A DNA stretch of 64,000 nucleotides, taken from assembly GCA_021791275.1 (NCBI GenBank), contig JAJYWX010000003.1, positions 29,641 through 93,640 of the forward strand. Direction: 5' to 3'. The stretch comes from a bacterium (GTDB lineage Bacteria > Patescibacteriota > Dojkabacteria > JAKAPS01 > JAJZLI01). Both the position numbers and the translations under genes were made by a program. Below, piece after piece: positions 1,474-63,030 of this stretch (position 1 is the first letter of the stretch; every line of letters starts with the position of its first letter). The notes under the pieces were generated by a model, which saw only the letters and a list, made by a program, of their open reading frames with translations, ran no database searches and was not told the origin of the DNA.

Positions 1474-1481
1474 TAACTAAA

Positions 1482-2627: not shown

Positions 2628-4592
2628 CGCATCCACAGGATTTAAGTTTGAAGCCTTAGATGATGGATATATACCAGATAAAACACTTATTACAATTCCA
2701 AACAAGAATACTAACAAATAAAAGTATAAAGGCGATGAGAATAAAATAACTGAGGCTCCTCCTGAAGCTTTTATAAAGTATGCAATTATTACATTCAAAA
2801 TACTTATAAATATAATTCCGAATATAAGACCTATTAACCCTCCTATAATCCCAATAACTATTGTCTCAAATATAAACAGATTTCTAACATCCTTTTTTCT
2901 AGCCCCAATTGCTTTAAGTATTCCAATTTCTCGAGTTCTTTCAAGTATTTCCATAAGCATTATTACAAGAATCATTATTGCAGAAACTACTAAAGATATT
3001 CCCCCTACAATTGCCAATACACTGTCTATAATCAAAAATGGAGTATTTAAAGAAGATATTATGCTAGCAAGGGTTTCTACTCCATAACCTAAAGATGAAA
3101 TTTTTGAAGCTATACTGTTTACATTTGATGTATTATCAGACAAAACATCAATACCAGAAAATTTAACATTATTAGTTCCTTCTAAACTACCCAGAAAAGA
3201 TATTGATTGCTTATATGGGATAAATGATTGGTGTTGAGTAGTAATACCTATTACTTTTACTTTAAACTTTCCTGGTTTTTTAAAAAGTCCATTTGGATCA
3301 AATATAGAAACTCCTCCACCGATAGATATACTTATATACTTTCCTAAAAGACTTTTAGCGTTCTTTGTAAATTCCTTAGCATTTGCTAATGATAAAATAA
3401 TGCCTGAATTGGAATTTATGTTTCCATATTTCATGGAATTTTTAATATTACTTTCTATATATTTTTGAGGGGAAAGATTTGTAATATAAACATTTGTAGT
3501 CTTCCCTTCAAAAACTGCAGATGCAAAAAATGTACTTTCTCCCCATGCAGCTTTAACATTTTGAATTTTTTTAAATTTATCAATTGTACTATTATTTAAA
3601 ATTTTACTCTTTGAACTATTAGATGCTTTCGGAGAAAATGAAAACCCACTACTGTTCTTATTTGGAGAGACTGAAATAATATTAGCTGATATTATTGTTG
3701 AAAGTCCTTTAGATAAATTCTGTTTCAAACCAAACCCAAAAGATAAAAGTATAATAAGCATTGCAATACCAATAGCAATACCTAAAGATGTCATCAAATT
3801 CCTAAACTTATTTTGGAATATATTATTCATTGCTATTTTAAAAAGCTCTACATAATTTATATTATTAATCTTTCTCTCTTTTTTATCTAAGCTAATCTCT
3901 TCTTTAGTATCTTTTAATTTATCCTCAACCTTAATAATTTTCCCATCAAGGAAATGAATAATAAAGTTCGAATCTTTAACTAAATCTTCATTATGAGTTA
4001 CCATTAAAACACTCTTCCCTTCAGAAACAAGAAGATTTAGTATTTTCATAACTTCTTCTCCATTTTTTGAGTCTAGATTCCCAGTAGGCTCATCTGCCAA
4101 TATTATATCTGGATCATTAATAAGTGCCCTTGCTATTGCCACCCTTTGTTTTTCACCTCCAGATAGAGTAGATACCCTTGCATCCTTTTTTTGAGAAATA
4201 TTAAATTTTTTTAAAAGATCTAATGCTTTTTTTTGAGAATCTTTTCTACTTAAACCCGCAAAAAGCCCAGGAATCATTATATTTTCCAAAACGCTCAAAG
4301 ATTCAATAAGATGAAATGATTGGAATATAAAACCAATTTTATCTCTCCTGTAGTATGAGAGATCATTCATTCCAAGATTTGTTATATTAACTCCATCAAT
4401 AAGTATCTCCCCTTCATCAGGCCGATCCATACCACCTATAAGATGCATAAATGTACTTTTACCTGAACCTGATTGGCCTAAAACCCCTACTAATTGATTC
4501 TCGGGTATATCTATTGATACGTTAGATACTGCCGAAAAATAAGAGTTATCTCCTAATTTATATTTTTTTGATATACCTTTAACTTTAATCAT
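2613..4592 (-). CDS. Fused ABC transporter, MacB-like: N-terminal ATPase plus C-terminal FtsX-type permease with a large extracytoplasmic domain
   Basis: Walker A GQSGSGKST, signature LSGGEKQRVAIARAL and Walker B ILADEPTGNLD. The C-terminal half has 4 TM helices with a long loop and an FtsX-like final TM bundle. Confidence 0.8.
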   Translation of the reverse strand: MIKVKGISKKYKLGDNSYFSAVSNVSIDIPENQLVGVLGQSGSGKSTFMHLIGGMDRPDEGEILIDGVNITNLGMNDLSYYRRDKIGFIFQSFHLIESLSVLENIMIPGLFAGLSRKDSQKKALDLLKKFNISQKKDARVSTLSGGEKQRVAIARALINDPDIILADEPTGNLDSKNGEEVMKILNLLVSEGKSVLMVTHNEDLVKDSNFIIHFLDGKIIKVEDKLKDTKEEISLDKKERKINNINYVELFKIAMNNIFQNKFRNLMTSLGIAIGIAMLIILLSFGFGLKQNLSKGLSTIISANIISVSPNKNSSGFSFSPKASNSSKSKILNNSTIDKFKKIQNVKAAWGESTFFASAVFEGKTTNVYITNLSPQKYIESNIKNSMKYGNINSNSGIILSLANAKEFTKNAKSLLGKYISISIGGGVSIFDPNGLFKKPGKFKVKVIGITTQHQSFIPYKQSISFLGSLEGTNNVKFSGIDVLSDNTSNVNSIASKISSLGYGVETLASIISSLNTPFLIIDSVLAIVGGISLVVSAIMILVIMLMEILERTREIGILKAIGARKKDVRNLFIFETIVIGIIGGLIGLIFGIIFISILNVIIAYFIKASGGASVILFSSPLYFYLLVFLFGIVISVLSGIYPSSKASNLNPVDALRYE

Positions 4593-35328: not shown

Positions 35329-35769
35329 CTATTCTAGTTTAAAATCTAAAATATATTTAACAGACGTTATTTTATTTTTTGTATTATTAAACAACTTTTT
35401 GTCTGCTGTAATGAAATCATATTTCAAAAATTGTGAAAGTGTGACATAAGAAGCATCATAAAAAGATAAATTATATTTTATTGATATGTTTAATATATCT
35501 AAATAAATTTCTTTTAAATCATAAAAAATTATTCCATAGTCATTAAAGAGACTTAAAGACTCTTTAGCTACGTTGACATCCAATTTCTTTAATCTTACTG
35601 CTGTTGAAAATACATTACCAATCTCATAATTGAGTATTGCTGGAGAATGCAAATTTATTTGCCCTGTATCATATAAATGTTTCAATTTTAGTGCAATATC
35701 AAGATGTTCTTCTTTCCGAAATTGTAAATACCATTTAACGATAATTGAATTATCTAGAATTAAATTCAT
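35329..35769 (-). CDS. vapC: PIN-domain toxin (VapC-like)
   Basis: N-terminal LILDNSIIVKWY with the first acidic D, plus further acidic residues (DASYV, TAD) near the C-terminus. Its ATG overlaps the stop of the upstream small RHH-like gene. Confidence 0.6.
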   Translation of the reverse strand: MNLILDNSIIVKWYLQFRKEEHLDIALKLKHLYDTGQINLHSPAILNYEIGNVFSTAVRLKKLDVNVAKESLSLFNDYGIIFYDLKEIYLDILNISIKYNLSFYDASYVTLSQFLKYDFITADKKLFNNTKNKITSVKYILDFKLE

Positions 35770-36014
35770 TTCAAGTCTTTTTTACTTTCTATAACAATAT
35801 CAGAGAAATCTTTGATTTTTAAGTTTTCTCTAATTTTATCTATTTTTGTACCTATTCTTAACCTTTGGCTATTATCATTTATATCTTGCATTCCTCTAAG
35901 AATCAACATATTTATTACTTTTTGTAAAGATACTTTTTGGTTATACGCAATATCCCGTGCTTGTTTTATTAATACACTATTTATTCTAATTGTTGTTCTT
36001 TCCATTTTATCCAT
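35766..36014 (-). CDS. vapB: Antitoxin, ribbon-helix-helix/CopG-like (VapB-like)
   Basis: 82 aa. MERTTIRINSVLIKQARDIAYNQKVSLQKVINMLILRGM fits the beta-strand then two-helix RHH pattern. Overlaps the vapC start. Confidence 0.5.
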   Translation of the reverse strand: MDKMERTTIRINSVLIKQARDIAYNQKVSLQKVINMLILRGMQDINDNSQRLRIGTKIDKIRENLKIKDFSDIVIESKKDLK

Positions 36015-36048: not shown

Positions 36049-36144
36049 AGATGTATATTATTAAATCAGGCATTTCGAACCGAATTTATAGGCAAGTTCT
36101 ATCAATACATTTGAGATATTTTCAAGTGGTAGTGTCGCATCACT

Positions 36145-36218
36145 TGACCTTGGCGGGATTCGAACCCGCGATTACCAGGATGAGAACCTGGTGTCCTAGT
36201 CCACTAGACGACAAGGCC
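36145..36218 (-). tRNA. tRNA-Glu (anticodon CTC)
   Basis: Reverse complement reads GGCCTTG TC GTCTAGTGGACTAGGAC A CCAGG TTCTCAT CCTGG TAAT CGCGGG TTCGAAT CCCGC CAAGGTC A. The cloverleaf has a 7-bp acceptor stem (one G-U), a T-loop TTCGAAT and an anticodon loop TT-CTC-AT. CCA is not encoded. Confidence 0.85.
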
Positions 36219-36284
36219 ATTTATAAGCAAAATTATAACATAAAATAAATTTACATTTTGTATTTTTTTTAGTAACATGAAAAC

Positions 36285-37046
36285 ATGCATAAAGTAAAAG
36301 ATTTTATCCTGCCCACCAAAGCAAATAACTTTAAATCTCCCCTACTTTCAAATAAAGCATTGACAGTATATTTCATTTTTCTATTATTTATAAATATAAT
36401 ACTTCCAATTTTCGCAATAAAATCAAACGTATCTATATTATCCCTATACAATAATATTAATAAATATAGAGAGGATCATAATTTAAAAGATTATGTATTT
36501 AGTAAATCCTTGTCTCAATCAGCTCAATTTATTATCGATGATATACAAAGATATCAGTATTTATCTAGAATAAACCCAATTACAGGATATACGTATTATT
36601 CTTTTATTGATACTAAGAGATTTTCTAATAACAATGAAATAATACTTAAAAATTATAACCTATCTAATATCAACACACAAAATATATTTAACTCATATTC
36701 AAACGCGATATTAAATAAGACAAATGATATTGGTATAGCGACTCAAAAAATTAATTTTTTTGGAACACCCTCATACATAACAGTTATTCTTACAGCCTAC
36801 GGAAACTCAAAAAATACGACACCGGTTTTTACAAGCAATACTCGAGGAGAATTTATTGATTACTCAATAATAACTTATACGGATTTCTTACTTATAATAT
36901 TTATACTTTCTTTAATGTTTTTAGATATAACATTTTCTATTTATTACAATTCTTTTGAAGATAAAAGCATCCCGCATACCAATTTCGCAATGGTTGTAAT
37001 TGCAATACTTATTATATTAATCTTAGTTATTGGAATAAGCATATGA
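36285..37046 (+). CDS. Hypothetical membrane-anchored protein with extracytoplasmic domain (weak CAP/SCP-like resemblance)
   Basis: 253 aa with an N-terminal TM, a soluble domain of about 150 aa (NNINKYREDHNLKDY...), then 2 C-terminal TM helices. Confidence 0.35.
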   Translation: MHKVKDFILPTKANNFKSPLLSNKALTVYFIFLLFINIILPIFAIKSNVSILSLYNNINKYREDHNLKDYVFSKSLSQSAQFIIDDIQRYQYLSRINPITGYTYYSFIDTKRFSNNNEIILKNYNLSNINTQNIFNSYSNAILNKTNDIGIATQKINFFGTPSYITVILTAYGNSKNTTPVFTSNTRGEFIDYSIITYTDFLLIIFILSLMFLDITFSIYYNSFEDKSIPHTNFAMVVIAILIILILVIGISI

Positions 37047-37858
37047 AGAAATTAATAAAATATAATATTGAAATATTAACTTTGCTCTTCTTCGTTTCTT
37101 TGCAAATATTGATTTTTTTGCTTTTTATATCTTCAATAAATTTCATACTTATATATATATTTATAATTGACCTTATAGTCATAGTATCTTTAATTGATGG
37201 AACGAAGAAATTTAAAGAAAATGTAAAAGAAAAAAAGATTTCTAAAAATGATAAAAATATATACTTCTATAATCAACTCATAATACCTTTAGTTTTATTT
37301 CTATCTACAGAAGTATTCTTAATAATTAACAGATTTAATATCTATTTTTCAGAGCTTACACTTATAATAACAGTAGTATTATTTTTTACATCACTAAAAT
37401 ACTTTGAAGCTTATTTTGAAGTATTTGAATTTAGTGAGAAAGCACATTTTACAATAAATGCTGTAAAGCTTTTTATATTCTTTATACTTATATACTCCCT
37501 TTTTGAGGTATCATCAATCCTTTATATATCCCAATATATACAGTCAGCATTTGTACTACTTATATCTTTTGCACTAATATTAATGATAATGCAAAGAAAT
37601 AAGATTTATTCATTAAAATTTATACTCTACTCTTTTTTAATTTCTCTATTTATATCTTTAATATCTCTTTTAGAAAATATTTATCTGCAGAATGTACTTC
37701 TTACAACATTTTCTATATCTTTAATATTTTATTTTTTTGAAAATATACTCCATCATAAATTTCATAATACACTCACCAGAGAGATTATTATTCAATACAT
37801 CTTAATAATATTAATACTATTTCTTCTAATTAAAGGTGTTGTTGGACTATCTCTATGA
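37043..37858 (+). CDS. Hypothetical polytopic membrane protein
   Basis: 271 aa with 7-8 hydrophobic helices. Start overlaps the upstream stop. Confidence 0.35.
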   Translation: MKKLIKYNIEILTLLFFVSLQILIFLLFISSINFILIYIFIIDLIVIVSLIDGTKKFKENVKEKKISKNDKNIYFYNQLIIPLVLFLSTEVFLIINRFNIYFSELTLIITVVLFFTSLKYFEAYFEVFEFSEKAHFTINAVKLFIFFILIYSLFEVSSILYISQYIQSAFVLLISFALILMIMQRNKIYSLKFILYSFLISLFISLISLLENIYLQNVLLTTFSISLIFYFFENILHHKFHNTLTREIIIQYILIILILFLLIKGVVGLSL

Positions 37859-38145
37859 AGAAATTAAAGGTTAAAAAACTATCTAATATTCAAGATAAAT
37901 CTTTGGGAAAGATAAAGTATAAAGATGAGAATATTTTCTTTAAAACAAGATTCGGTATTCATACATTTGGAATCAAAGAAAAAATAACAGTAGTTATACT
38001 AGATAATGATTTCAAGGTGAAGACAATTAAGGAAGTTTTGCCAAATAGATTATTTTTTTGGAATATAAAATATAAGAATGTAATCGAGCTAAATGAAGAT
38101 AATACGATAGACTTAAAAATTGGAGATAAAATTGAAATATACTAG
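37855..38145 (+). CDS. DUF192 (COG1430)-like small protein
   Basis: FGIHTFGIKEKITVVILDNDFKV...IDLKIGDKIEI resembles the IHTFGM...DVxFLDxDGxV...GD core of DUF192. Confidence 0.4.
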   Translation: MKKLKVKKLSNIQDKSLGKIKYKDENIFFKTRFGIHTFGIKEKITVVILDNDFKVKTIKEVLPNRLFFWNIKYKNVIELNEDNTIDLKIGDKIEIY

Positions 38146-38146
38146 A

Positions 38147-39406
38147 TTAAAAGACCGCCGCAAAAAATATATTACCAGGATCATATCTTAGACCTCCTCC
38201 CATATTTTGACCAAATGTAAGATTTGGGCCAAACCAAGGATCCTGCATAGTACCAGATGCTCCAACAGCACCAGTCATTGTTACAAAATGTGTACCAAAA
38301 GGATTATCTGGAACATAGAATCCTATAACTACTGGAGAAGAAGGTGATGCATATGCATCTATTTCAGATATAGATGGATTGTATATCAATTGTTGAACAC
38401 CAGGTAGAGACCCAAATTCCGTTCCCCCATTACCTGTCCAATATGAGACTGCTGAATAAGGATTAAATCCTGTATTTCCTATTAAATTTTCAGCCATAAT
38501 TGCAGCAATTAAAGAACACCCAGCGTTACTGTAAGTATCCCCAGATGAATCTAATACATATCCTCCCCATGAAGGACATTCTTGAGAATAATAAAATCCA
38601 GTATTACAAGGTACATTAGCAGGTATTACACCAGGAGTTCCTTCTGAAAGCTCTAAGCTTGCAATTTTTTGAAGTATAGATTGCTGTTGTTGTTGGATTT
38701 GGGAATTGGAAGATTGAAGTGAATTATTACTACTTTGGAATTGAGATTGCTCATTTTTAAGTGCATTTTGGTCCGCAATAAGAGAATCCTCTGTTGAAAC
38801 CTCTTGGTTATAAAGGCTCTGTGCATCATTTTGTTTTAATACCAATGAAGATTTATTTGCATTAAGAGATGAGATCAAAGCATCCATTTTTATAACTAAA
38901 TCATTTTCATGAGTCATAGTAGCCTTATAATAAACAACAGACTCAATAGCACTATTAATGTTTGAATTTCCCATAAACATTGTTACTGGAGGTATGTATG
39001 TTTCCTCATATCCAGATTTTGCATTTTGATCTATTTTTCCTTTTATAACAGATATTTGGTTCTCTTCTGAGGCAATCTGAGCATTTAAAGCATTTATTTG
39101 AGAATCTAACTGATCTATTTGAGCTTTTTCATTATTAACTAATACTTGTTTTTGAAATATTAGCTGTTGATAACTATTGATTTGCGCTTGAAGGTTTGAA
39201 ATATTATTATTATTTTGTTGTATTTTTTGTTGATTTTGATTTATAAGATTCTGAAGATCATTGTACTGCTGTTGTAGTGCACCAAGAGATGAAGTTGCAT
39301 TAACAACCTTGGGCTTTGCTAACATAAGAGGATATATCACTATTGATGTAATTAAAAATAGAAATAAAGCTAATCTTATTTTTTTATATTTAAAAAATAT
39401 ATTCAT
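38147..39406 (-). CDS. Secreted coiled-coil protein with C-terminal papain-like cysteine peptidase domain (Peptidase_C39-like/CHAP-like), a putative FtsEX-regulated cell-wall hydrolase
   Basis: N-terminal signal/TM segment, then about 230 aa of Q/N-rich heptad-like coiled coil. The C-terminal domain has catalytic-type Cys (SNAGCSLIAAIMA) and His (GTHFVTMTGAVGASGTMQDPWFG), matching the C39-like pattern. It lies directly downstream of ftsE-ftsX. Confidence 0.6.
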   Translation of the reverse strand: MNIFFKYKKIRLALFLFLITSIVIYPLMLAKPKVVNATSSLGALQQQYNDLQNLINQNQQKIQQNNNNISNLQAQINSYQQLIFQKQVLVNNEKAQIDQLDSQINALNAQIASEENQISVIKGKIDQNAKSGYEETYIPPVTMFMGNSNINSAIESVVYYKATMTHENDLVIKMDALISSLNANKSSLVLKQNDAQSLYNQEVSTEDSLIADQNALKNEQSQFQSSNNSLQSSNSQIQQQQQSILQKIASLELSEGTPGVIPANVPCNTGFYYSQECPSWGGYVLDSSGDTYSNAGCSLIAAIMAENLIGNTGFNPYSAVSYWTGNGGTEFGSLPGVQQLIYNPSISEIDAYASPSSPVVIGFYVPDNPFGTHFVTMTGAVGASGTMQDPWFGPNLTFGQNMGGGLRYDPGNIFFAAVF

Positions 39407-39456
39407 ATACTTGAGTCACATTACAATATAGCATAAAGAAAAATGTGTTTCAAATG

Positions 39457-40383
39457 TTATTTTTTAAGATACCTAGAAATGGCTATAAAAGAAGAGATTG
39501 AGCCTATAATAATTCCCAATAAAACTTCAACAAAAATTATTTCCAAAATAAGTAAAGGAGAATATTGAGGTATAGGTATTCCTTGGAAGAAACTTAGAAG
39601 AGGTAAAATTACAGACTCTCTATAATAAGTATTTAAAACTAAAAATATTAGATAAAGTATTATTGATGATGCAAATACACCAATTATTCCATAAAATGCA
39701 CCTTCAAATATAAATGGGCCAGAGACATAGGTATCAGTTGCCCCAACTAACTTCATTATCTCTATTTCCTCGGAGTGAGAATTTATTGTTATAGCAACAG
39801 TTATTATTATTATTACAAAAGATATTATAGATAAAAATACAATAAGTCCTATACCAATACTTGTAATAATAGATACAGCCTTTTTAAGAAACTGTACAAC
39901 ACTCTTAAAGTAAAGAATATTGTTTATTTCCCCCTTACTTTGAGATTTTAATTTATATAATATACCCGCAATATATTCTAAATTAGATAAATTATTCGTA
40001 CTTATTTCATATGATGGAGGTAGTGCATTTAAATCTACCGCCTTTGCAAGTTGAGGGTTTTGCGTTTTTAATGTTTTTTCAAAGTTTACAAAAGCCTGTT
40101 TTTTAGAAACATATTTTATTTCTGTTGCCCTATGAGTATTTTCTATATCTTTTTTAACTGCAGATATATAAGAGGCTGGTGCATTTGGATTAAAAAACAG
40201 TATGATTTGAGATTTAGATTCATAGTAGTGTAATACTACATTTACAGAATACACAGTCAAGGAAAATATCGATATAACAAAAAAAGTAAGGGTCATTATC
40301 GCTATAGAGGCAAATGAAAGCCATCCATTTCTTATTATATGTTGATATGTGTATTTTAAAACTCTTTCCAGTTTAAGCATCAT
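39457..40383 (-). CDS. ftsX: Cell division ABC transporter permease-like protein FtsX
   Basis: 308 aa with 4 TM helices and an extracytoplasmic domain between TM1 and TM2. Overlaps the ftsE stop. Confidence 0.8.
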   Translation of the reverse strand: MMLKLERVLKYTYQHIIRNGWLSFASIAIMTLTFFVISIFSLTVYSVNVVLHYYESKSQIILFFNPNAPASYISAVKKDIENTHRATEIKYVSKKQAFVNFEKTLKTQNPQLAKAVDLNALPPSYEISTNNLSNLEYIAGILYKLKSQSKGEINNILYFKSVVQFLKKAVSIITSIGIGLIVFLSIISFVIIIITVAITINSHSEEIEIMKLVGATDTYVSGPFIFEGAFYGIIGVFASSIILYLIFLVLNTYYRESVILPLLSFFQGIPIPQYSPLLILEIIFVEVLLGIIIGSISSFIAISRYLKK

Positions 40384-41054
40384 TCGTTATAACCTCCCTC
40401 AGAGTCTCTAATAATTCTACCCTCATCCAACGCTATAACTCTTTTTTGCATTGAATTAACAATATCTGATGCATGTGTGGCCATAAGAACTGTAGTTCCC
40501 CAACTATTTATTTTATTCAAAAGCTGTATAATATCCCACCCTACCAATGGATCTAAATTCCCTGTAGGCTCATCAGCTATAAGAATATGAGGATTATTCA
40601 CCAATGCTCTTGCAATAGCAACTCTTTGCCTCTCTCCTCCAGATAGTTGATGTGGAAACATTTTAGACTTAGTTGAAAGACCAACCATATCTAATATATA
40701 GTCTACACTTTTTTTGATTTCTCTATTAGTATGGTCTGAAAGTTCTAAAGCAAAAGATACATTCTCAAATGTAGTTTTCCTTGGAAGAAGTTTGAAATCC
40801 TGAAATACTACCCCTATCTCTCTTCTTAGGTAAGGCAGGGCTTTTTTATTTAATTTTTCTATATCATAACCTGCAAAATGTATACTTCCAGATGTTAAAT
40901 TCTCTTCCTTTATTACCAACCTTATTACTGTACTCTTCCCTGCCCCAGAATGGCCTACAAGAAAAACAAACTCCCCCTCATCAATATGAAAATTTATATT
41001 ATCTAAAACAGTCTTACCTTTATACTCTTTATAAACATTTTTAAAAGTTAACAT
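40380..41054 (-). CDS. ftsE: Cell division ATP-binding protein FtsE
   Basis: Walker A GHSGAGKST, signature LSGGERQRVAIARAL and Walker B LIADEPTGNLD. 224 aa. Confidence 0.9.
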   Translation of the reverse strand: MLTFKNVYKEYKGKTVLDNINFHIDEGEFVFLVGHSGAGKSTVIRLVIKEENLTSGSIHFAGYDIEKLNKKALPYLRREIGVVFQDFKLLPRKTTFENVSFALELSDHTNREIKKSVDYILDMVGLSTKSKMFPHQLSGGERQRVAIARALVNNPHILIADEPTGNLDPLVGWDIIQLLNKINSWGTTVLMATHASDIVNSMQKRVIALDEGRIIRDSEGGYNE

Positions 41055-41087: not shown

Positions 41088-42173
41088 TCAATTTAGTTTT
41101 ATTTCTGAAAAAATAAAAATATCCAAATCCCCGTTGAGAACAGCTTCTGTATCAGAAGTTTCTACATTTGTTCTTAAATCTTTAACAAGTTTATATGGAT
41201 GTAGAACATAGTTTCTTATCTGATTTCCCCACATAGGAACTTTATGCTCTCCTTTTAAGTCCGATAACTCTTTTTCTTTTTTATCTTCTTCGATCTTATA
41301 AATTTGAGCTCTAAGCTTTCTCATAGCATATTCTCTATTTTGAACCTGAGATCTTTCCGAACCTGCAACAACAACGATACCTGTGGGTATATGTTTTAAA
41401 GTCACCTTGGTTGAAACTTTATTTACATTTTGTCCCCCTGGCCCCCCACCTCTAGTAGCTGAAAATTCTATATCTTCATCTCTAATTTCAATTTCAGAAT
41501 CATCTTCAATTAAGGGTACTACTTCTACTAAAGCAAATGATGTCTGCCTCAATCCTTGAGCATTAAAAGGAGAAACTCGTACAAGTCTATGAGTTCCGCT
41601 TTCCCTCTTTAAATATCCAAAAACATAAGCTCCTTTTACTTCCATACTCACACTACTTATCCCAGCTTCATTACCCTGTACCATATCTGTAATCTCATAT
41701 TCCCAACCTTTAGATTGGAAGTATCTTGTATACATCCTAAAAAGCATGTCAGTCCAATCCATAGCTTCAGTACCACCTTGACCTGCATGAATTGAGAGTA
41801 TTGCTCCATTCCTATCAAATTTTGAAGAAAGATAAGTTTTAAACTCTATTTTTTCAAAATCTTTATCAATTGATGCTAATTCTTTTTCTAACTCTTCTTT
41901 TAAACTTTCTGTATCTTCAGATGAAAGTTCAGATAGCTCTCTCATATACGCCACTCTAGATTCTATATCCTCTATATCTTTTACTTCTTCTTTAAGCTCA
42001 TTTAGCTCTTTCATTTTTGAAGTAGCAATGGAAGAATCGTTCCAAAAACCTTCCTTCAAGGATTCTTCTTCAAGTGCATTAATACGACTTTCAAAAGAAG
42101 AAAAATCTAAATTCTTCTTAATATCAATAATTCTTTTTTCTAAGACAGATATCTTATCTTTTATGGAGTCCAT
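41088..42173 (-). CDS. prfB: Peptide chain release factor 2
   Basis: SPF tripeptide (RVSPFNAQG) and GGQ motif (GGPGGQNVNKVSTKV). A single uninterrupted 361-aa ORF. Confidence 0.9.
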   Translation of the reverse strand: MDSIKDKISVLEKRIIDIKKNLDFSSFESRINALEEESLKEGFWNDSSIATSKMKELNELKEEVKDIEDIESRVAYMRELSELSSEDTESLKEELEKELASIDKDFEKIEFKTYLSSKFDRNGAILSIHAGQGGTEAMDWTDMLFRMYTRYFQSKGWEYEITDMVQGNEAGISSVSMEVKGAYVFGYLKRESGTHRLVRVSPFNAQGLRQTSFALVEVVPLIEDDSEIEIRDEDIEFSATRGGGPGGQNVNKVSTKVTLKHIPTGIVVVAGSERSQVQNREYAMRKLRAQIYKIEEDKKEKELSDLKGEHKVPMWGNQIRNYVLHPYKLVKDLRTNVETSDTEAVLNGDLDIFIFSEIKLN

Positions 42174-42187
42174 TTTTTAAATTTACG

Positions 42188-42574
42188 TTAAGGAATTTTT
42201 AATATAGATTTTACCTCTTCTATTATCTGCTTTGTTGAGTGAAATGATTTTATAATATATCCTGCAGCTTCTCTCGCAAATCCCTCCTTAATAGTTGTAT
42301 CATCTGAAAGATTTGTAAGAAGAATAACCGGTATATTCATAGTTGAAGGAACAGATTTCAACTCTTTTAGAACATCTAGGCCATTCATTCCTGGAAGCAT
42401 AACATCCAAAAGTATGAAATCAGGTTTTTCATTTTTTGCCATTATGAGCCCTTCTTCCCCTGTGTATGCATTTATAACTGAAAAATTATTCTCTTCAAAT
42501 GCCCTTGCATATATAAATGCTATATTTACCTCATCTTCGATAAAAAGAACTTTCATTTTTTTATTATTGTCCAT
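42188..42574 (-). CDS. Single-domain response regulator (receiver only)
   Basis: MKVLFIEDEVN...FILLDVMLPGMNGLDVLKELK...PVILLTN. 128 aa. Confidence 0.75.
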   Translation of the reverse strand: MDNNKKMKVLFIEDEVNIAFIYARAFEENNFSVINAYTGEEGLIMAKNEKPDFILLDVMLPGMNGLDVLKELKSVPSTMNIPVILLTNLSDDTTIKEGFAREAAGYIIKSFHSTKQIIEEVKSILKIP

Positions 42575-42637: not shown

Positions 42638-43660
42638 TTACTCTAATAACCTTAGTACTTCGACTCTTCTTGGATCTTCTTCTGTACCAAAACATTCAAT
42701 ATCACCTTTCTTTATAAAATCAATCTCCTTTTTTGTAAGAGGAATCTTTTTTAAAACTTTTCTATGTATTCTTGTCAATTTTCTCATATCTGTAAAAGTT
42801 TTTCTGAATTTTTCAAATGAATTTAATTCTCTTAATAATTTTTCCAATACATCATACATAATTGGATCTACATTTTGTTGAAATAAAATACCTCTGGCTT
42901 CAACTACTTCTCCATTTTTTAACCTAATAACAAGTCTTGGAACCTTTTTTCCATTTTCATCATAATCATAATAAACATATATATCACCATCATTGAGATA
43001 CATAAATGCTTTATACCTCTTTTCTATACACCATCCAGTATTATTCCCACTTAAGGATGATACTAATGCATCCTCATCTCCTTGAGAGTATCTTTCCCAA
43101 TCACCTTTTTTATATTTACATGTTTCAGAAAAATTTGGACTCTGCTGAACTCCATAAATTTCTCGTGCATATAATCTGGAAAATCTTCCATTGTCGCCCA
43201 AAAGTATACTTAGATACACATTATGCACGGCTCCTTCATGAATAGGGGGAAACGGATCTAGAGTGGTTTTACTACGACTTGAGAATTCTCCCCATCCCTT
43301 ATTATACCCTGATAATTTAAGTACTGACCTTAATACTAAATATTTAAACCAAATTGGATAATCTGATTGTCTCATATATTCTATCCAAGAGCTTAAACTT
43401 TCATATTGACCTTTTCTTATAACCTCTAATTCCGAATCCGTAAGATTCGGGTTATCTTGGGATTTTACAAGATGATATTCTATGAATCTTTTCAGTGCCT
43501 CAGGATTAGGGTTATCTCTAAAAACAGAGTGTCTTGACTCAAGATTACATAAATAAGAAGATACTAAATCAGGCTGTTTAGCAGAAAATTGTACTTCTGC
43601 AGAGTTACTTAATTCATATCTTTCCAGAGGATAAGTTATTTGCCTTTCTTCATTTTCCAA
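42638..43660 (-). CDS. Hypothetical protein (340 aa), no recognisable family
   Basis: Long intact ORF with Arg/Glu/Tyr/Trp-rich composition unlike its neighbours and no TM helix. Directly upstream of the receiver-only gene. Confidence 0.45.
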   Translation of the reverse strand: MENEERQITYPLERYELSNSAEVQFSAKQPDLVSSYLCNLESRHSVFRDNPNPEALKRFIEYHLVKSQDNPNLTDSELEVIRKGQYESLSSWIEYMRQSDYPIWFKYLVLRSVLKLSGYNKGWGEFSSRSKTTLDPFPPIHEGAVHNVYLSILLGDNGRFSRLYAREIYGVQQSPNFSETCKYKKGDWERYSQGDEDALVSSLSGNNTGWCIEKRYKAFMYLNDGDIYVYYDYDENGKKVPRLVIRLKNGEVVEARGILFQQNVDPIMYDVLEKLLRELNSFEKFRKTFTDMRKLTRIHRKVLKKIPLTKKEIDFIKKGDIECFGTEEDPRRVEVLRLLE

Positions 43661-54910: not shown

Positions 54911-55921
54911 ATGGATCAAAACAAATACTTAGATTATAAAGAGAAATTATCTAAGTTAAACCAACAAATTAAAGATAATCCAAAAGAAATAGAAAATTTA
55001 GCTGACGAATATAATGAAGCTATAACTTTTGTTAATGATTTTGAAGAAATATCCAGATTAAATACTCAAATAGAAAACAATCTTACTATAAAAGATCCTG
55101 AACTACTAAATATAATAAAGGATGAAAATAAAAATTTAGAGAAAAGAATTTATCAAATTAAAAATAAATATAATCCTTCAAATATAAATGATTCAAAAAA
55201 TATAATATTAGAGATAAGAGCGGGCACAGGAGGAGATGAGGCAGGGTTATTTGTAAAAGATATGTATGAAGTATATAAAAAGTATATTGAATCTAAAGGA
55301 TGGAAGCTAAATATATTAGATATATCATATAACGAATCATCTGGAATAAAACAAATAATAGCATCTGTTAAAGGTAATATGGTTTATGGTAATTTCAAAT
55401 TTGAAAGTGGGGTACATAGAGTTCAGAGAGTTCCAAAAACTGAAAGTGGAGGCAGAATACATACCTCAACAATATCAGTTGTGGTATTGCCAGAAATACA
55501 ACCTAAAGATTTAGAAATAAGTGAGAAAGATTTAAAATTTGATTACTTCAGAGCCTCTGGTGCTGGTGGGCAACATGTAAATAAAACTGAATCTGCAGTA
55601 AGAATTACTCATATACCAACAGGAATTATTGCAGTATCTCAGGCAACTCCATCTCAGCTTCAAAATAAGCAGACTGCAATGGAGGTACTCAGATCAAAAC
55701 TTTATTCAAAAATACATGAAGAAAATTTAGAAAAAAATTCTAAAGAAAGATTATCACAAATAGCTGGAAGCAAAAGATCTGAAAAAATTAGAACATATAA
55801 TTTTCTACAAGATAGAATTACTGACCATAGATTAGGAAAAGCAGAAAACTTTCATATCTCAGACATATTTGAAAAAAACAAACTTCAAGAACTTATAGAT
55901 AAAATAAAAAATGAAAATTGA
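54911..55921 (+). CDS. prfA: Peptide chain release factor 1
   Basis: PxT-type motif (PKT) and GGQ motif (SGAGGQHVNKTESAVRITHIPTG). Confidence 0.9.
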   Translation: MDQNKYLDYKEKLSKLNQQIKDNPKEIENLADEYNEAITFVNDFEEISRLNTQIENNLTIKDPELLNIIKDENKNLEKRIYQIKNKYNPSNINDSKNIILEIRAGTGGDEAGLFVKDMYEVYKKYIESKGWKLNILDISYNESSGIKQIIASVKGNMVYGNFKFESGVHRVQRVPKTESGGRIHTSTISVVVLPEIQPKDLEISEKDLKFDYFRASGAGGQHVNKTESAVRITHIPTGIIAVSQATPSQLQNKQTAMEVLRSKLYSKIHEENLEKNSKERLSQIAGSKRSEKIRTYNFLQDRITDHRLGKAENFHISDIFEKNKLQELIDKIKNEN

Positions 55922-56654
55922 GGATATATTAAGGTCTAATAACCAAGATCTTATAAGATTAGTAAAATATGTAACAAAAAAGGATCCATATAAAAATACT
56001 GAATATAATATTAATAAGAATGAAATTCAGAGAATAAAGAAATTAAAAAAAAGAATAGGTAAAAATGAACCTATTGAATATATAATTAAAAAAGCATATT
56101 TTTCAAAATATGAATTCCTAGTCAATAAGAACACATTAATACCAAGAGTAGAGACACAGATTATACTCGAATACCTAAAAAATTATAAAAATATACTTGA
56201 TTTAGGATGTGGATCTGGAGCCGTTGGCATATCAATAAAAAGAAACAACCTTAAAATAAATGTTACACTTTCTGATATATCAGAAAAAGCATTATATATT
56301 GCAAGAAAAAATGCACAAAATTTAGATATAAAAATAATAAAATCAGATCTTTTAAAAAATATCAAAAATATTAATATATATGATTGTATATTTGCAAATC
56401 TTCCATATATCAAAGATTTTGACTCTTTACCATATTCTGTAAGACTCTATGAGCCTAAAATAGCCCTTATAGGTGGAGGTAAGCATGGTCTTGAAAAGAT
56501 AGAAAATCTAATAAATCAAATAGAAGAAAGGAAATGGAAAGGGGATCTTTATTTAGAAGTTGACCCTTTCCAAATAAAATATATAAAAAAGAAAAATTTT
56601 ATAATAAAAGATCAATATGGAAAAAATAGGTTTATAAAAATTATTTTCAAGTAG
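55911..56654 (+). CDS. prmC: Release factor glutamine N5-methyltransferase PrmC (HemK)
   Basis: SAM motif LDLGCGSGAVG and the NPPY-type motif FANLPYI. Overlaps the prfA stop. Confidence 0.8.
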   Translation: MKIEDILRSNNQDLIRLVKYVTKKDPYKNTEYNINKNEIQRIKKLKKRIGKNEPIEYIIKKAYFSKYEFLVNKNTLIPRVETQIILEYLKNYKNILDLGCGSGAVGISIKRNNLKINVTLSDISEKALYIARKNAQNLDIKIIKSDLLKNIKNINIYDCIFANLPYIKDFDSLPYSVRLYEPKIALIGGGKHGLEKIENLINQIEERKWKGDLYLEVDPFQIKYIKKKNFIIKDQYGKNRFIKIIFK

Positions 56655-57858
56655 CACCTTTAACTTCTATTGCTTTTTGGAGCTGTGTATCAATACCCTT
56701 TTCAAATTCTTTTGCAGAAAATTTAACTTTCACATTAGGTATTATTGGATTCTGAGGAGTAATCCACCTACCTGAAGGAAGTAACCAATGCTTTGTTGTA
56801 AGTACCAATAATGCCCCATCAGAGAAATTATATACATTTTGAGCAGTCCCTTTACCATATGTATTCTCTCCTACTACAACAGCTCTATGATAATATTGCA
56901 AAGCCCCTGTAAAGATTTCTGCAGAAGATGCAGTTTCACCATTTACAAGTATAACTAAAGGTGTATTTTGAAGATTACCTTGATAATTTGTATCAAACTG
57001 CTGGATACCCCCTCCCCTACTTTCTTGTTCAGCGACTAAACTTCCTTGAGGCAAAAATTCACCTGCAGCATACACAGCTGCATCAAAATAACCTCCAGGA
57101 TTCCCTCTTAAATCTAAGATAATTTTTGAAGGATTCTCTGCTTCAACTTTTGACATTGTACTTGAGAAAGAATTTTCCCATTGTGATAATGTTGAATCTG
57201 AAAATCTTAAAATTTGAACATCCACTACTCCATTCCCAAGATTCTTTACCACTTCGCTGGATACATGAATATTTTGTCTTTCTATTTTATAATTTTTAAA
57301 ATTACCATTTATTGTATCTATTCCCAAAGTTAAATAAGTCCCACTTTTACCTCTAACATCATTTACTAAAGTGTTTATATTGGAAATATTCTTTCCATTA
57401 AAAGTTTTTATTATATCTCCATCCTCAAGGCCAGCTTTTTGTGCTGGAGTATTTGGTAAGACCTCATTTATAATAATATTTCCTGAATGATTGAACCCTA
57501 AAGCAACACCTATTCCAGCAAAGGAATTACCAGATATTGCATCATAATACTGAGATGCTTGAGAAGGTGAAAAAAATAAAGTATGAGGATCTCCTAATGA
57601 GTTTACCATACCATTTATAGCACCATAATATAACTTTTTATTATTTAAATTCTCATAATAATAATCTGTATGTATTACATTCCAAACATTATTAAAAAGA
57701 TTTGGGTTTATACCATTTGATGAAAGAGGACTTGATATATTGCTTTGGGTAAAAAATGATGAAGGAGAAAAATTAGAACCTGCCCAAAATCCTATTGCAA
57801 GGCAAACTATCGCAAGCAGAGATACTGTAATATATTTATTAAAAAGAATATTTTTCAT
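56647..57858 (-). CDS. Carboxyl-terminal processing protease (peptidase S41, CtpA-like) with PDZ domain
   Basis: N-terminal TM, PDZ segment (GDIIKTFNGK) and the S41 core (GNPGGYFDAAV..., GETASSAEIF..., YGKGT). Confidence 0.8.
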   Translation of the reverse strand: MKNILFNKYITVSLLAIVCLAIGFWAGSNFSPSSFFTQSNISSPLSSNGINPNLFNNVWNVIHTDYYYENLNNKKLYYGAINGMVNSLGDPHTLFFSPSQASQYYDAISGNSFAGIGVALGFNHSGNIIINEVLPNTPAQKAGLEDGDIIKTFNGKNISNINTLVNDVRGKSGTYLTLGIDTINGNFKNYKIERQNIHVSSEVVKNLGNGVVDVQILRFSDSTLSQWENSFSSTMSKVEAENPSKIILDLRGNPGGYFDAAVYAAGEFLPQGSLVAEQESRGGGIQQFDTNYQGNLQNTPLVILVNGETASSAEIFTGALQYYHRAVVVGENTYGKGTAQNVYNFSDGALLVLTTKHWLLPSGRWITPQNPIIPNVKVKFSAKEFEKGIDTQLQKAIEVKGAT

Positions 57859-58862
57859 TAATCTTCAATTATACCAACAATGTCATCAATTTGTATATTA
57901 ACATTATTCCCGTTATCTAGATTTAGATTACACTCTTTACCTATGGAATTTATTGAATTTACCCTTCCTGTATATCCCCAATAAGGATACGAAAATATTT
58001 GAACTTTATCAGAAACTTCTACTTTTTTTATATCAAAAAGTTTATCATCTCTTTTTGACTTATTATCCGATATAACAAAGGCCATATTTGATTGATCTAT
58101 AAAAGCGGGAGATTTGTGATTCTTTTCAAGAGAGTAAAAACAAGAATTCTCAATTACACCAAACCCATCCGTAACTCCAACAGTTATTGGAATAGAATTT
58201 ACAAAATCTTCAATACTTTCATTGTTCCTCAGTTCTATACCATTACCCATTATCCCTACAACACCAACAGCCACAGATTTTTTGATAATCTCCATAGTTA
58301 TTAAATTACCTACATATATTATATCTCCAATAACAGAGGCATTGATATTTTCTAAATTCAAAAATCCTTTGTTATCACATAAATATCGAAAATTTGCCTC
58401 TGTGCTAGGTCCAAAAATATATCTTAAATCTATTTTCAATACTGGAGAATCTATTACAACCCTACTTTTATCATCTGATATATATGATACTGTACCAGAT
58501 ATTTTGGATATATTTACTATATCTTCTGGATATGATTTTACTAAAATAAAACCAGAAGGAAGATGAGATAAATCGACTATACCATCTACAGGCGCCTCTA
58601 TTTGTTTTTTCCTTTTTTTAATAATCGGATCACCCTTATGAACAATTTCTCCATTTTCAACTAGAACATATTTCACAAAATTAGTGGAAAAATCAGAAAC
58701 TTTTATCCTATATGACATCTTACTAATATGTCCTTTAGATATAACAGTATCATCAGATATAATATCATTTAAAGATACCATAAGATGAGTATCAGGATCT
58801 ATAAATCTTGAATATTTATAACTATGTATGTATGCTATTTTTTTTAAAAAAACTATCTCCAT
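57858..58862 (-). CDS. Hypothetical protein (334 aa)
   Basis: Intact ORF that overlaps the S41 protease gene by 1 nt. No recognisable motif. Confidence 0.4.
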   Translation of the reverse strand: MEIVFLKKIAYIHSYKYSRFIDPDTHLMVSLNDIISDDTVISKGHISKMSYRIKVSDFSTNFVKYVLVENGEIVHKGDPIIKKRKKQIEAPVDGIVDLSHLPSGFILVKSYPEDIVNISKISGTVSYISDDKSRVVIDSPVLKIDLRYIFGPSTEANFRYLCDNKGFLNLENINASVIGDIIYVGNLITMEIIKKSVAVGVVGIMGNGIELRNNESIEDFVNSIPITVGVTDGFGVIENSCFYSLEKNHKSPAFIDQSNMAFVISDNKSKRDDKLFDIKKVEVSDKVQIFSYPYWGYTGRVNSINSIGKECNLNLDNGNNVNIQIDDIVGIIED

Positions 58863-58865
58863 AAT

Positions 58866-59990
58866 TTAAAAAACTAAATCCTGAGAATTTTCTATCCAAC
58901 GAGATATTTCGATAGGAGTTAATTTATCAATATCCTTAGTATATATAAACACCTTACTTTTTGATATTAACTCAACATCTCCTCTTTTATTCCCTATGGA
59001 TACTCCATTAGGAAGTTTTATAGTTATATGTGCTGTACCATTAACAGGTATATTTATAAGATCATTCAGCTTAACATTTATTTCCTTAACACTTTCATCA
59101 TCTATAACTTTTATAGGAATAATTAGAGATTCATTTTCTTTTTTATCAAAACTAATATGGAATACATCTCCTATATGATTAATTTTAGAGAATATATAAT
59201 CATCAGGGAGAATGCCTAAAAAAGGAAAAATATTTGAATTATCTGTATAAAGAGATATTATTCCTCGTATATCAAGTCCATATAGAAGCGAGAATATTGC
59301 ATAATTGCTATCAGATAGAAATTGATATATATCACCACTAAGTATAAATATAGGGACAGAGTCCTGAGGTTCAAAAGAGAATGATGAAAGTAAATTTTTA
59401 TTTAAAGTTGAAATTATTGGTAAAAACAACTCTTCTCGGTAGGACAAAGATTGTTTTGTTAAAGCATTATAAAGGTTATATTTTTTAATTTTTCCATTAA
59501 GTATTGAAAATTGAGAAAAATCTTTGATTTTGAATAATTCATCGTACATAAAATCAAAAGTTTTTTTAGAACTTGTGAAATTTATATTCCCTGATATGAA
59601 AATATTATCTCTTGATACATTAACTACAAAACAAGGTATATCATAAAACTTTTTTGCAAAATACTTTGTTTTATCATTTAAAAAATTCTGATCAATATTT
59701 ATAACCTTTTCTGTGATTTTCAAAAGATCTTTTTTAAAAAAATCCAAAGATGTATAAATTTCAATGTTAAGATCATCATCGGGAGAATGATAACTAAAAT
59801 TATAAAGTAAAACCTTTATAAATTTATTAATGAATAAAACTCTGTCAAAAAGGGGATTAAAAAATTCTTGGACTAAAGATATTTTTTTTGATGATAATAC
59901 TTGTCCATCAAAAAAGATAAAACCTTTTATATAAAAATTATCTATTGATATTATTATTTTATAATTCTCTCTCCTATCTTTATTTTCCAT
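58866..59990 (-). CDS. Hypothetical protein (374 aa)
   Basis: Intact ORF 21 nt downstream of rpsR. No recognisable motif. Confidence 0.4.
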   Translation of the reverse strand: MENKDRRENYKIIISIDNFYIKGFIFFDGQVLSSKKISLVQEFFNPLFDRVLFINKFIKVLLYNFSYHSPDDDLNIEIYTSLDFFKKDLLKITEKVINIDQNFLNDKTKYFAKKFYDIPCFVVNVSRDNIFISGNINFTSSKKTFDFMYDELFKIKDFSQFSILNGKIKKYNLYNALTKQSLSYREELFLPIISTLNKNLLSSFSFEPQDSVPIFILSGDIYQFLSDSNYAIFSLLYGLDIRGIISLYTDNSNIFPFLGILPDDYIFSKINHIGDVFHISFDKKENESLIIPIKVIDDESVKEINVKLNDLINIPVNGTAHITIKLPNGVSIGNKRGDVELISKSKVFIYTKDIDKLTPIEISRWIENSQDLVF

Positions 59991-61147: not shown

Positions 61148-61519
61148 TCAATATTCATTAAGTATCTTTTGTATGTTCTTAATTTCTTTATTATCTAATT
61201 TTATTTTTTTTAAAGAGACTTTATCTAATACAATATCATTTGCCATTGATAGTAATTCCTTTTTATTCTTTTTATTCGAATTTTCACAAAGATAATTATA
61301 TATTTTATCCCTTTTTAAGGTATATAAAGATACTAGTTTAAAGTAGTACATAATTTTGGTAAAAAACGATGTAATTAAAATTGATATTAGGAGGTAAAGA
61401 ATAAAAAGATATAAATTAAAATAAACTATAGATTCAAAGGTTTTATATATAAAATATATACCGAAAACAAAAAGTACAATAGATACTATAAAATTAAATT
61501 TAAGAGATTTTTTTCTCAT
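61148..61519 (-). CDS. Hypothetical small membrane protein (2 TM)
   Basis: 123-aa ORF downstream of the subunit-IV-like gene. Confidence 0.3.
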   Translation of the reverse strand: MRKKSLKFNFIVSIVLFVFGIYFIYKTFESIVYFNLYLFILYLLISILITSFFTKIMYYFKLVSLYTLKRDKIYNYLCENSNKKNKKELLSMANDIVLDKVSLKKIKLDNKEIKNIQKILNEY

Positions 61520-62444
61520 TGTAATATCTTCTCCAAATTATTTTATATATTGGAATATAATAAGGAATTTTATTTAAAACTGGTATTATTGGGATGAAAA
61601 ACAATATTGCAATAAATACGCTAAACGTTAGAAATGCCATTAAGTCTCCCGAAGGGGAAGTAGAATAAGGAGGTATTTGATATAAGGATGTATATAAAAA
61701 TAACCACCAAGGACCAGGATAGTTTCCCTCCTCTTTTAAAATCCCCCACTGATCGCCAAGCATAGAATAATTTTTAGCCATATTTGCAAGTGGAGCACCC
61801 TGTAAAAATAACAATTTATTTTGGAAATTATATGAATACACCCCGTTATTCCCTTTTAAATTATTATCTAAAAGGTTTTGAAATACTCCAGTCTGAGCCA
61901 GGATTAACAAATCGTTTTCCATACCCTGAATGGGACCATATTCTCCATTCTTAACAATAACTTTCCCCTTATAGACTTTAGCTGAATTCAAAGCTTTATA
62001 ATAATTTTCCTCATACTTATTTAAAAGACTCTTATCATAGTGGGATAAATAAAAATATTGATTCATAAGAGTCTTTACTTTTTGAGATAATCGCGAATAA
62101 GTTATTAAAGGATCTATAAAAAAGACCTCTTTGGGGTGTACAGAAACAGTTACCCCCTCAATTCCCTCTGGCGATATGAATCCTACAGATTGTGCTTGTC
62201 CATTTTTATTATAGGGAGGACCATAATCCTCCAGAGAGGAGATTCCCAATATATTTCTAGATTCCACTTTTTCAAAACCTACCGGACTACTCTTAGAATA
62301 AGACATAATTGACAGGGGTTTCATTTGTGGAGATTTAAAAAGTAAAGCTAAAATTAGAATAAAAGCTAAAACTGCAAAAAAAGCATATAAAAATTCTTTT
62401 ATAAGATCTGATTCTTTTTGTTTATATTTATCTTCTTCATTCAT
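61500..62444 (-). CDS. Membrane protein with a large extracytoplasmic insert and C-terminal cytochrome b C-terminal/subunit-IV-like segment (PEWY-like PWWLF)
   Basis: One N-terminal TM, a soluble region of about 190 aa, then YPGPWWLFLYTSLYQIPP plus a TM (LMAFLTFSVFIAILFFIPIIPVL), which resembles the PEWYF.PvfqILR plus helix F of PetD/QcrC. Immediately follows the cytochrome b6-like gene. Start taken at the internal Met (62444); the longer ORF would begin at 62501. Confidence 0.4.
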   Translation of the reverse strand: MNEEDKYKQKESDLIKEFLYAFFAVLAFILILALLFKSPQMKPLSIMSYSKSSPVGFEKVESRNILGISSLEDYGPPYNKNGQAQSVGFISPEGIEGVTVSVHPKEVFFIDPLITYSRLSQKVKTLMNQYFYLSHYDKSLLNKYEENYYKALNSAKVYKGKVIVKNGEYGPIQGMENDLLILAQTGVFQNLLDNNLKGNNGVYSYNFQNKLLFLQGAPLANMAKNYSMLGDQWGILKEEGNYPGPWWLFLYTSLYQIPPYSTSPSGDLMAFLTFSVFIAILFFIPIIPVLNKIPYYIPIYKIIWRRYYNEKKIS

Positions 62445-62445
62445 A

Positions 62446-63030
62446 TCATTCAATTGGGGGTACAACCCCTTTCTTCCTAACAAAAAATAAATGTATGCCA
62501 AGAAGCGCTACTAATATTATTGGAAGTATCACTACATGCAACCCATAAATTTGACTATTATTTAATATATTAATAAATCCAGTTAATCCAATCGCATTCA
62601 TTGCATCTTTAGCTTGCACTTGGTTCCATTGTGCAAAAAATCCCCCACCAATAAGATAGCCCAAGAAAGCTTCAAACATAGATATTCCAAAAAGCATAAC
62701 CCCCAACATCCATGTAATAATCCTTCCTTCTCTCCAACCTGCCATAAAAAAAACTGAAATCATATGTACTATCATGAAAAAAAAGAATACCTGAGCTCCC
62801 CAGAAATGTATCGATCTGAAGAAAAGTCCTAACGAAGAGTATTGGTACCAAATGGGTCCTTCTAAAACCATTATTATTCCTGATGATATAACGATAACAA
62901 GACTTGCCATCGTAAGAACCCCAAACATATATACAAAAGAGGATACATACACTGGTAATGTATCAGGAAGCATCATATCTGGGTCTAAATCTTTTTTTAT
63001 CTCTTTTTTTACTACCCTAGTTATATTCAT
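62446..63030 (-). CDS. Cytochrome b6-type dihaem membrane protein (PetB/QcrB N-terminal-domain homolog)
   Basis: Aligns by eye along its length with cytochrome b6. FRSIHFWGAQVFFFFMIVH has His-x13-His, compared with RSVHRWSASMMVLMMILH. TWMLGVMLF...FLGYLI matches TWVTGVVLA...VTGYSL. IYGLHVVILPIILVALLGIHLFFVRKKG has His-x14-His, compared with [28 protein letters not shown]. All four haem-ligand His are at b6 spacing. Confidence 0.7.
   Translation of the reverse strand: MNITRVVKKEIKKDLDPDMMLPDTLPVYVSSFVYMFGVLTMASLVIVISSGIIMVLEGPIWYQYSSLGLFFRSIHFWGAQVFFFFMIVHMISVFFMAGWREGRIITWMLGVMLFGISMFEAFLGYLIGGGFFAQWNQVQAKDAMNAIGLTGFINILNNSQIYGLHVVILPIILVALLGIHLFFVRKKGVVPPIE

Follow-up and report, generated by a model that had tools for sequence, protein, structure and literature searches.

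An ftsEX-linked coiled-coil protein with a putative C39-like cysteine peptidase domain in a Patescibacteria genome

We analysed a 64,000-nucleotide stretch of the Dojkabacteria contig JAJYWX010000003.1 (phylum Patescibacteriota, contig positions 29,641 to 93,640; hereafter the window, numbered from its first letter), concentrating on ftsE, ftsX and the gene that follows them, which encodes a 419-residue protein that we propose to be the cell wall hydrolase controlled by this FtsEX pair. The list of open reading frames (ORFs) agrees with the first-pass annotation of the locus, in which prfB, ftsE, ftsX and the 419-residue ORF lie head to tail on one strand:

42188-42574, minus strand: response-regulator gene (ORF list), preceding prfB
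41088-42173, minus strand: prfB, peptide chain release factor 2 (TIGR00020; Pfam PCRF and RF-1)
40380-41054, minus strand: ftsE, ATPase subunit of FtsEX (TIGR02673; Pfam ABC_tran)
39457-40383, minus strand: ftsX, membrane subunit with an extracellular domain (Pfam FtsX_ECD and FtsX)
38147-39406, minus strand: 419-residue ORF, putative FtsEX-controlled wall hydrolase, an exported coiled-coil protein with a C39-like cysteine peptidase domain (ORF list; orthologs in the same place)

The ftsE and ftsX genes overlap by 4 nt, and gaps of 33 nt and 50 nt lie on either side of the pair, the latter between ftsX and the 419-residue ORF. FtsE scores above the equivalog cutoff of its NCBIfam model (277.2 bits vs 264.85, E 8.4e-83) and matches Pfam ABC_tran at E 1.1e-37. 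FtsX passes the Pfam cutoffs for both the extracellular domain (FtsX_ECD, residues 59-140, 48.9 bits, E 1.1e-12) and the FtsX domain (residues 180-307, 44.6 bits, E 1.8e-11), and scores below the strict NCBIfam cutoffs (FtsX_Gpos, 184.9 bits vs 225, E 2e-54; a second FtsX model, 156 vs 255). PrfB is assigned by TIGR00020 (436.6 bits vs a cutoff of 370) and both Pfam domains; its single unbroken ORF covers positions 3-351 of the 353 in the model, so that the +1 programmed frameshift seen in many bacterial prfB genes appears to be absent. A promoter and terminator scan was uninformative: it gave 16 promoter-like sites where chance predicts 26, and no terminator between genes. A promoter-like site, as a consensus match only, falls within the 50-nt gap between ftsX and the 419-residue ORF.

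The 419-residue protein divides into an N-terminal hydrophobic segment, two long predicted helices separated by a short turn, a linker and a globular C-terminal domain, as delimited mainly in a full-length AlphaFold2 (AF2) model:

39296-39406, minus strand: residues 1-37, a basic N-terminus, a 19-residue hydrophobic helix and VNA|TSS; predicted signal peptide or membrane anchor (hydropathy and model)
38999-39298, minus strand: residues 37-136, coiled-coil helix 1 (AF2 full-length model)
38960-38998, minus strand: residues 137-149 (..TYIPPVTMFMGNS..), the turn, presumed by analogy to be the docking site for the FtsX extracellular domains (break in the model)
38642-38959, minus strand: residues 150-255, coiled-coil helix 2 (AF2 model and EnvC profile alignment)
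38600-38641, minus strand: residues 256-269 (LSEGTPGVIPANVP), linker with low predicted local distance difference test (pLDDT) scores and without secondary structure
38150-38599, minus strand: residues 270-419, papain-like (C39-like) cysteine peptidase domain

Hydropathy reaches its maximum of 2.19 across residues 10-28, where the model places a helix (8-28), and in the ortholog alignment Ala37 is nearly invariant and Ser40 invariant. We predict that this segment is either a signal peptide or an N-terminal anchor. The model continues with helices at 37-136 and 150-255, broken at 137-149, before the globular domain begins. Most of both long helices is predicted at pLDDT >90 (helix 1, 77-97 over residues 41-130 and lower toward the turn; helix 2, 83-97 over residues 161-240). 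Residues 38-255 contain 16.5% Gln, 13.3% Asn and 12.8% Ser, which bears out the long Q/N-rich coiled coil described in the first-pass annotation. That annotation had also suggested that near-repetitive CAA/CAG tracts could make the Gln-rich region prone to length variation; this part of its description is not supported, and the sequences show no trace of such variation. The longest Gln run is 5 residues, Tandem Repeats Finder returned only one 2-copy array (score 33-44), a direct-repeat search found nothing beyond 12-18-nt two-copy chance matches, and the coiled-coil half aligns among close orthologs without indels outside the N-terminal ~25 residues.

To place the coiled coil among known proteins, a profile of 13 full-length family members was searched against all PDB sequences. 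The best match was EnvC in the cryo-electron microscopy structure of the FtsEX-EnvC complex (8hd0_E, E 7.7e-10), colinear over ~215 residues (profile 30-244 vs EnvC chain 22-236). Next came the crystal structure of EnvC (6tpi, E 1.3e-7), RipA (E 1e-3) and other M23 proteins of FtsEX complexes, and PcsB gave only a weak match (4cgk, E 0.64). Generic coiled coils appear between these matches, so compositional bias contributes to the scores; the top matches nevertheless run colinear along the entire ~200-residue hairpin. The cutoff of the Pfam model CC_PcsB is exceeded or nearly reached by distant relatives (P0016, 35.2 bits vs 27), and each of the heptad-type residues L72, I76, I104 and I111 is kept by at least 14 of the 16 family members. 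Judged by these profiles, the predicted coiled coil is of the EnvC, RipA and PcsB type. Around the turn, Y133, E134, P139 and P140 are nearly invariant (alignment A1), Tyr133 being present in at least 14 of the 16 broad-family sequences.

For the C-terminal domain, the first-pass annotation had quoted three motifs (NAGCSLIAAIMA, GTHFVTMTG and DPWFG) as matching a C39-like papain fold. All three are present in the protein, and alignment of 23 domain sequences, reaching down to ~21% identity, singles out the following putative catalytic residues:

38582-38584, minus strand: Gln275 codon, putative oxyanion-hole residue, invariant in 23 of 23 domain sequences
38516-38518, minus strand: Cys297 codon, putative catalytic nucleophile in an invariant Gly-Cys motif, at the N-terminus of model helix 47-58 (domain numbering), a hallmark position of the papain fold
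38288-38290, minus strand: His373 codon, putative catalytic base, invariant, on strand 122-127 of the domain model
38240-38242, minus strand: Asp389 codon in an Asp-Pro motif, putative third triad member, invariant in the 23-sequence alignment and Asn in P0008/P0009, the lineage with the swapped domain

The complete set of invariant positions comprises Gln275, Trp280, Gly296-Cys297, Pro316, Val359, His373 and Asp389-Pro390, and conservation across the broad family is highest at these catalytic motifs. The order of residues is as expected for a Cys-His-Asp triad preceded by an oxyanion-hole Gln. In the confident model of the isolated domain (pLDDT 88.1; predicted template modelling score 0.87), the main helix has Cys297 at its N-terminus, a beta strand carries His373, and the strand after it ends at Asp389. 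The predicted fold is papain-like in both the position of the Cys on the central helix and that of the His on a strand, rather than a non-enzymatic fold. Its structural neighbours are led by the pseudomurein endoisopeptidase PeiR (Z 11.4), followed by the C39 domain of PCAT1 (10.5), the C39-like peptidase 3erv of Bacillus anthracis (10.4), 6mpz (10.3), the C39 domain of ComA (10.2), CdiA-CT (10.1) and Staphopain (9.6), with papain-like enzymes trailing lower; sequence identity to these neighbours is 13-17%. A search of PDB sequences with the domain profile was weak and also placed PeiR first (E 0.006), ahead of 3erv, 9jdd, PCAT and AvrRpt2. In a viral structure library, only two matches reached E <=0.001, one to a phi29-type 'morphogenesis protein 1 / wall hydrolase' (3.5e-6) and the other to a tail tape-measure protein (1.7e-4). 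Both are wall-penetration contexts, and a phage 'peptidase' fell just above that cutoff (1.1e-3). Peptidase_C39_2 is listed as an enzymatically active domain in endolysins of phages of Gram-positive hosts (PMC8223927; bioRxiv 10.64898/2026.04.25.720813).

Family membership was traced through relatives. An exhaustive phmmer search of 1.84 billion representatives returned only 16 proteins at E <=1e-3 for the C-terminal domain, which marks it as a rare, divergent branch; most of the 16 are ~400-420 residues long with the same architecture, and a homology search with the close-clade domain alignment reached only 3 GTDB species. At E values between 1e-8 and 1e-4, phmmer links the window domain to proteins above the PF13529 cutoff, and five relatives exceed the 24 bits that this Peptidase_C39_2 model requires (P0021, 33.3; P0027, 32.1; P0016, 28.3; P0014, 26.4; P0018, 24.6). 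When the clade of the window (7 sequences) was compared with the Pfam-positive clade (12 sequences), hhalign gave 99.5% probability (E 1.7e-22) over 150 columns. By homology and modelled fold, the catalytic domain belongs to the Peptidase_C39_2 superfamily and lies outside the current Pfam model.

We then asked how consistently the gene accompanies ftsX. In 8 of 9 distinct lineages ftsX lies directly upstream (the window; L008/9/11; L001/2/3/12; L004/5/6/13; L007; L014; L015; L016), the exception being L010. Orthologs at 51-99% identity hold the same place after ftsX, and the positional orthologs at 70%, 56% and 51% share the order response regulator-prfB-ftsE-ftsX-gene as well as the downstream neighbours; NCBI labels the 56%-identical ortholog Patescibacteria. 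Linkage extends to relatives with only 24-30% identity in the domain (L007, L014, L015 and L016), whose FtsX proteins are 24-34% identical to that of the window. Among these, L015 has the order prfB-x-ftsE-ftsX-gene, L016 has ftsE-ftsX-gene, and the truncated upstream ORF of L014 is an FtsX C-terminus. prfB lies ahead of ftsE in L001, L004, L008 and L015. In L014 (positions 3-3099), ftsX is followed by a coiled-coil protein with a Peptidase_C39_2 domain and then by an EnvC-like protein with a CC_PcsB-like coiled coil and Peptidase_M23, suggesting that one FtsEX may serve two partners. In the window itself, tblastn detected no further coiled-coil partner with an M23 or C39-like domain.

One sister lineage separates the two halves of the protein. 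L004/L013 is the closest relative of the window by FtsE (90.6% identity), FtsX (85.1%), PrfB (77.0%) and the coiled-coil half (69.6%), yet the C-terminal domain is only 25.2% identical; more distant genomes show 67-81% identity in this domain. We compared window positions 38150-38680 (residues ~243-419) with L004:5001-6251 and with L013, and DNA similarity drops away sharply around gene nucleotide 730 (~residue 243, close to window position 38676). The replacement domain remains C39-like by hhalign to the Pfam-positive clade (98.2%, E 5e-14), carries Asn instead of Asp389 and is barely related to the window subtype (25.9% probability). From these alignments it looks as though the catalytic cassette of L004/L013 has been replaced behind a conserved FtsX-side coiled coil.

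On this evidence we consider it probable (roughly 0.7) that the 419-residue protein is the extracytoplasmic partner of FtsEX, a C39-like wall hydrolase acting at division. The cognate hydrolase proposed by the first-pass annotation is supported computationally through linkage, the EnvC-type coiled coil and the invariant residues, with wall cleavage and FtsX binding inferred; none of the three refuting conditions named in that annotation came true. The N-terminal hydrophobic segment would export or anchor the protein, and two antiparallel helices of ~100 residues would form a hairpin of the EnvC, RipC and PcsB type. By analogy with characterised systems (PMC11627006), the turn of this hairpin would dock on the extracellular domains of FtsX. 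ATP binding and hydrolysis by FtsE could then be relayed through FtsX and the coiled coil, relieving a presumed autoinhibition and releasing or positioning the C-terminal domain. That domain, as an active papain-like cysteine peptidase (Gln275/Cys297/His373/Asp389), may cut peptide or amide bonds in the wall, with peptidoglycan as the likely substrate.

Several observations weigh against this proposal. Residues 251-419 have no Pfam match even at E up to 10 and do not reach the PF13529 gathering cutoff; NCBIfam returned nothing for the C-terminal domain, and phmmer against the PDB gave nothing meaningful, only coiled-coil noise. The C39-like assignment, otherwise upheld by hhalign, the fold model and the conserved Gln, Cys, His and Asp, is transitive. 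Foldseek matches in the PDB were coherent but weak, the best at E 0.03. We had expected a peak of conservation at the hairpin turn, and a sliding window over the broad family did not rise above the coiled-coil background; given that the turn is only modestly conserved, its conservation is not used here as evidence for FtsX docking. The L010 homolog P0012, a distant one on a 2.2-kb contig, is preceded by unrelated small genes, with no ftsX within the ~970 nt of available upstream sequence. No peptidoglycan-synthesis genes (mur, pbp) were found among the Pfam-scanned ORFs of the window (40 of the 46 of at least 180 residues, plus two shorter ones), so we assume a cell wall from what is generally held of Patescibacteria. 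Finally, the leader-peptide proteases of the PCAT C39 type share the fold group at nearly the Z of PeiR, so the fold does not settle the substrate.

This last point supports the alternative that fares best, although we regard it as improbable, namely that the protein is an FtsEX-tethered protease for a substrate other than peptidoglycan (a secreted or surface protein or peptide, such as a pilin, S-layer protein or leader peptide) and is merely positioned or gated by FtsEX.

We judge it distinctly unlikely that the protein is a wall hydrolase acting without FtsEX, as RipA reportedly does in Corynebacteriales, with its adjacency to ftsX reflecting inherited operon structure. A paper whose title reports FtsEX-independent control of a coiled-coil hydrolase (PMC9897464), the promoter-like consensus match ahead of the gene and the homolog lacking an upstream ftsX would all fit such independence. 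However, adjacency holds where FtsX is only 24-34% identical, far beyond inheritance among close relatives, and the L004 lineage keeps the coiled coil while its catalytic domain is replaced, as expected if a partner constrains the coiled coil.

Very unlikely, too, is a non-catalytic, EnvC-like activator whose C-terminal domain binds and activates a separate hydrolase: EnvC is the best coiled-coil profile match and NCBI names one ortholog 'murein hydrolase activator EnvC family protein', but that label is based on the coiled coil only (NF008644, 21.4 bits vs a cutoff of 270, residues 45-252), and the invariance of Gln, Cys, His and Asp down to 21% identity indicates a retained active site, whereas the LytM domain of EnvC has lost its catalytic residues (PMC11627006).

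The window (G+C 24-33%) otherwise carries ordinary housekeeping genes including secA, recA, dnaB, recJ, relA, tsaD, tRNA synthetase genes and prfA, the last of which lies with a prmC-like methyltransferase gene at 54911-56654. Immediately beyond the module, three convergent genes at 36285-38145 (plus strand) are syntenic with it in L001, L004 and L008; they encode proteins of 253 residues (weak CAP-domain match), 271 residues (multi-pass membrane protein, weak DUF5656 match) and 96 residues (no family). Overlapping ORFs at 35329-36014 (minus strand; 82 and then 146 residues, 4-nt overlap) form a candidate toxin-antitoxin-like pair, which adjoins tRNA-Glu(CTC) at 36144-36219 and has a PIN-domain gene at the syntenic position in L008. 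A second FtsX-type permease, distinct from FtsEX, is a fused MacB-like protein of 659 residues at 2613-4592 (minus strand; ABC_tran, MacB_PCD and an FtsX C-terminal domain), near an AcrB-family transporter at 9965-12943. A CtpB-like C-terminal processing protease (Peptidase_S41, PDZ and a CtpB_N-like region) is encoded at 56647-57858 (minus strand); Ctp proteases regulate wall hydrolases in other bacteria. Four ORFs of 333-374 residues (42638-43660, 57858-59990 and 61500-62501, all minus strand) matched no Pfam family at a threshold of E 1e-5.

The control of coiled-coil wall hydrolases through FtsEX mechanotransmission is a well-studied paradigm, and the FtsEX partners in a 2024 review carry LytM, CHAP or NlpC/P60 domains only (PMC11627006). 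We found no published description of a C39-like FtsEX partner, or of FtsEX partners in Patescibacteria (the Candidate Phyla Radiation), in a literature whose coverage here is incomplete and leaves novelty unproven; automated annotation already names family members 'CwlO-like', 'EnvC family' or 'C39 family peptidase'. If true, our proposal would extend this paradigm both to a new catalytic class and to the Patescibacteria, which are poorly understood and for the most part uncultured. It would also tie part of the Peptidase_C39_2 family, which is large and mostly uncharacterised, to a specific function in the cell. It would be an extension rather than a surprise, because CHAP and NlpC/P60 domains are also papain-like Cys-His enzymes and annotation already tags such proteins. 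The in-place swap of the catalytic domain offers a natural experiment on the modularity of FtsEX-hydrolase systems. Only tentatively would we generalise to a broad set of Patescibacteria, in which the FtsEX hydrolase might use a fourth catalytic class, C39-like, in place of CHAP, NlpC/P60 or LytM, with cassette exchange of this module while the FtsX-docking coiled coil is conserved. Such exchange would point to wall-bond specificity being retuned rapidly, perhaps in connection with unusual wall chemistry or an episymbiotic lifestyle.

Among characterised systems, RipC-FtsEX of Mycobacterium tuberculosis and CwlO-FtsEX of Bacillus subtilis resemble the module in that the exported protein linked to ftsEX begins with an antiparallel coiled coil of two helices, joined by a short segment, and continues through a linker into a C-terminal Cys-His peptidase with the papain superfold. 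The layout of RipC (alpha-1, 45-110; Lip, 110-128; alpha-2, to 216; catalytic domain, 270-385; PMC11627006) parallels residues 37-136, 137-149, 150-255 and 270-419 of the 419-residue protein, and the Lip of RipC and residues 114-160 of EnvC are the FtsX-docking segments (PMC11627006) to which the turn would correspond. The catalytic domain of RipC and CwlO is NlpC/P60, unlike the C39-like domain with Gln, Cys, His and Asp found here, and membership of the CwlO, RipC and RipA families was rejected: the corresponding NlpC/P60 NCBIfam models match the coiled coil only, at 10-21 bits vs cutoffs of 517-625, and Pfam NLPC_P60 does not match. PcsB-FtsEX of Streptococcus pneumoniae likewise combines a coiled coil with a C-terminal papain-like cysteine amidase/peptidase under FtsEX, and relatives of the window protein match CC_PcsB. 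PcsB differs in its CHAP domain and in a coiled coil with more helices (PMC11627006), and membership was again rejected (NF046104, 9.3 bits vs 450, coiled coil only; no Pfam CHAP match). EnvC-FtsEX of E. coli, Pseudomonas and Vibrio supplies the best sequence-profile match to the coiled-coil half. The LytM domain at the end of EnvC is degenerate and non-catalytic and serves to activate amidases (PMC11627006), whereas the 419-residue protein has an intact putative cysteine-peptidase site; it falls outside the EnvC family by the NF008644 score given above and lacks a Peptidase_M23 match. Peptidase C39 proper, the bacteriocin-processing domain at the N-terminus of PCAT and other ATP-binding cassette (ABC) exporters that acts on double-glycine leaders, was also considered and rejected: here the domain is C-terminal on an exported coiled-coil protein, and the adjacent ABC system is FtsEX rather than an exporter with its own fused peptidase. 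Peptidase_C39_2 proteins such as 3erv, and the pseudomurein endoisopeptidases PeiR, PeiW and PeiP, lack a fused coiled coil of the FtsEX type, unlike the 419-residue protein. In summary, the module as we propose it works like RipC, CwlO, PcsB and EnvC, yet its hydrolase is a member of none of those protein families.

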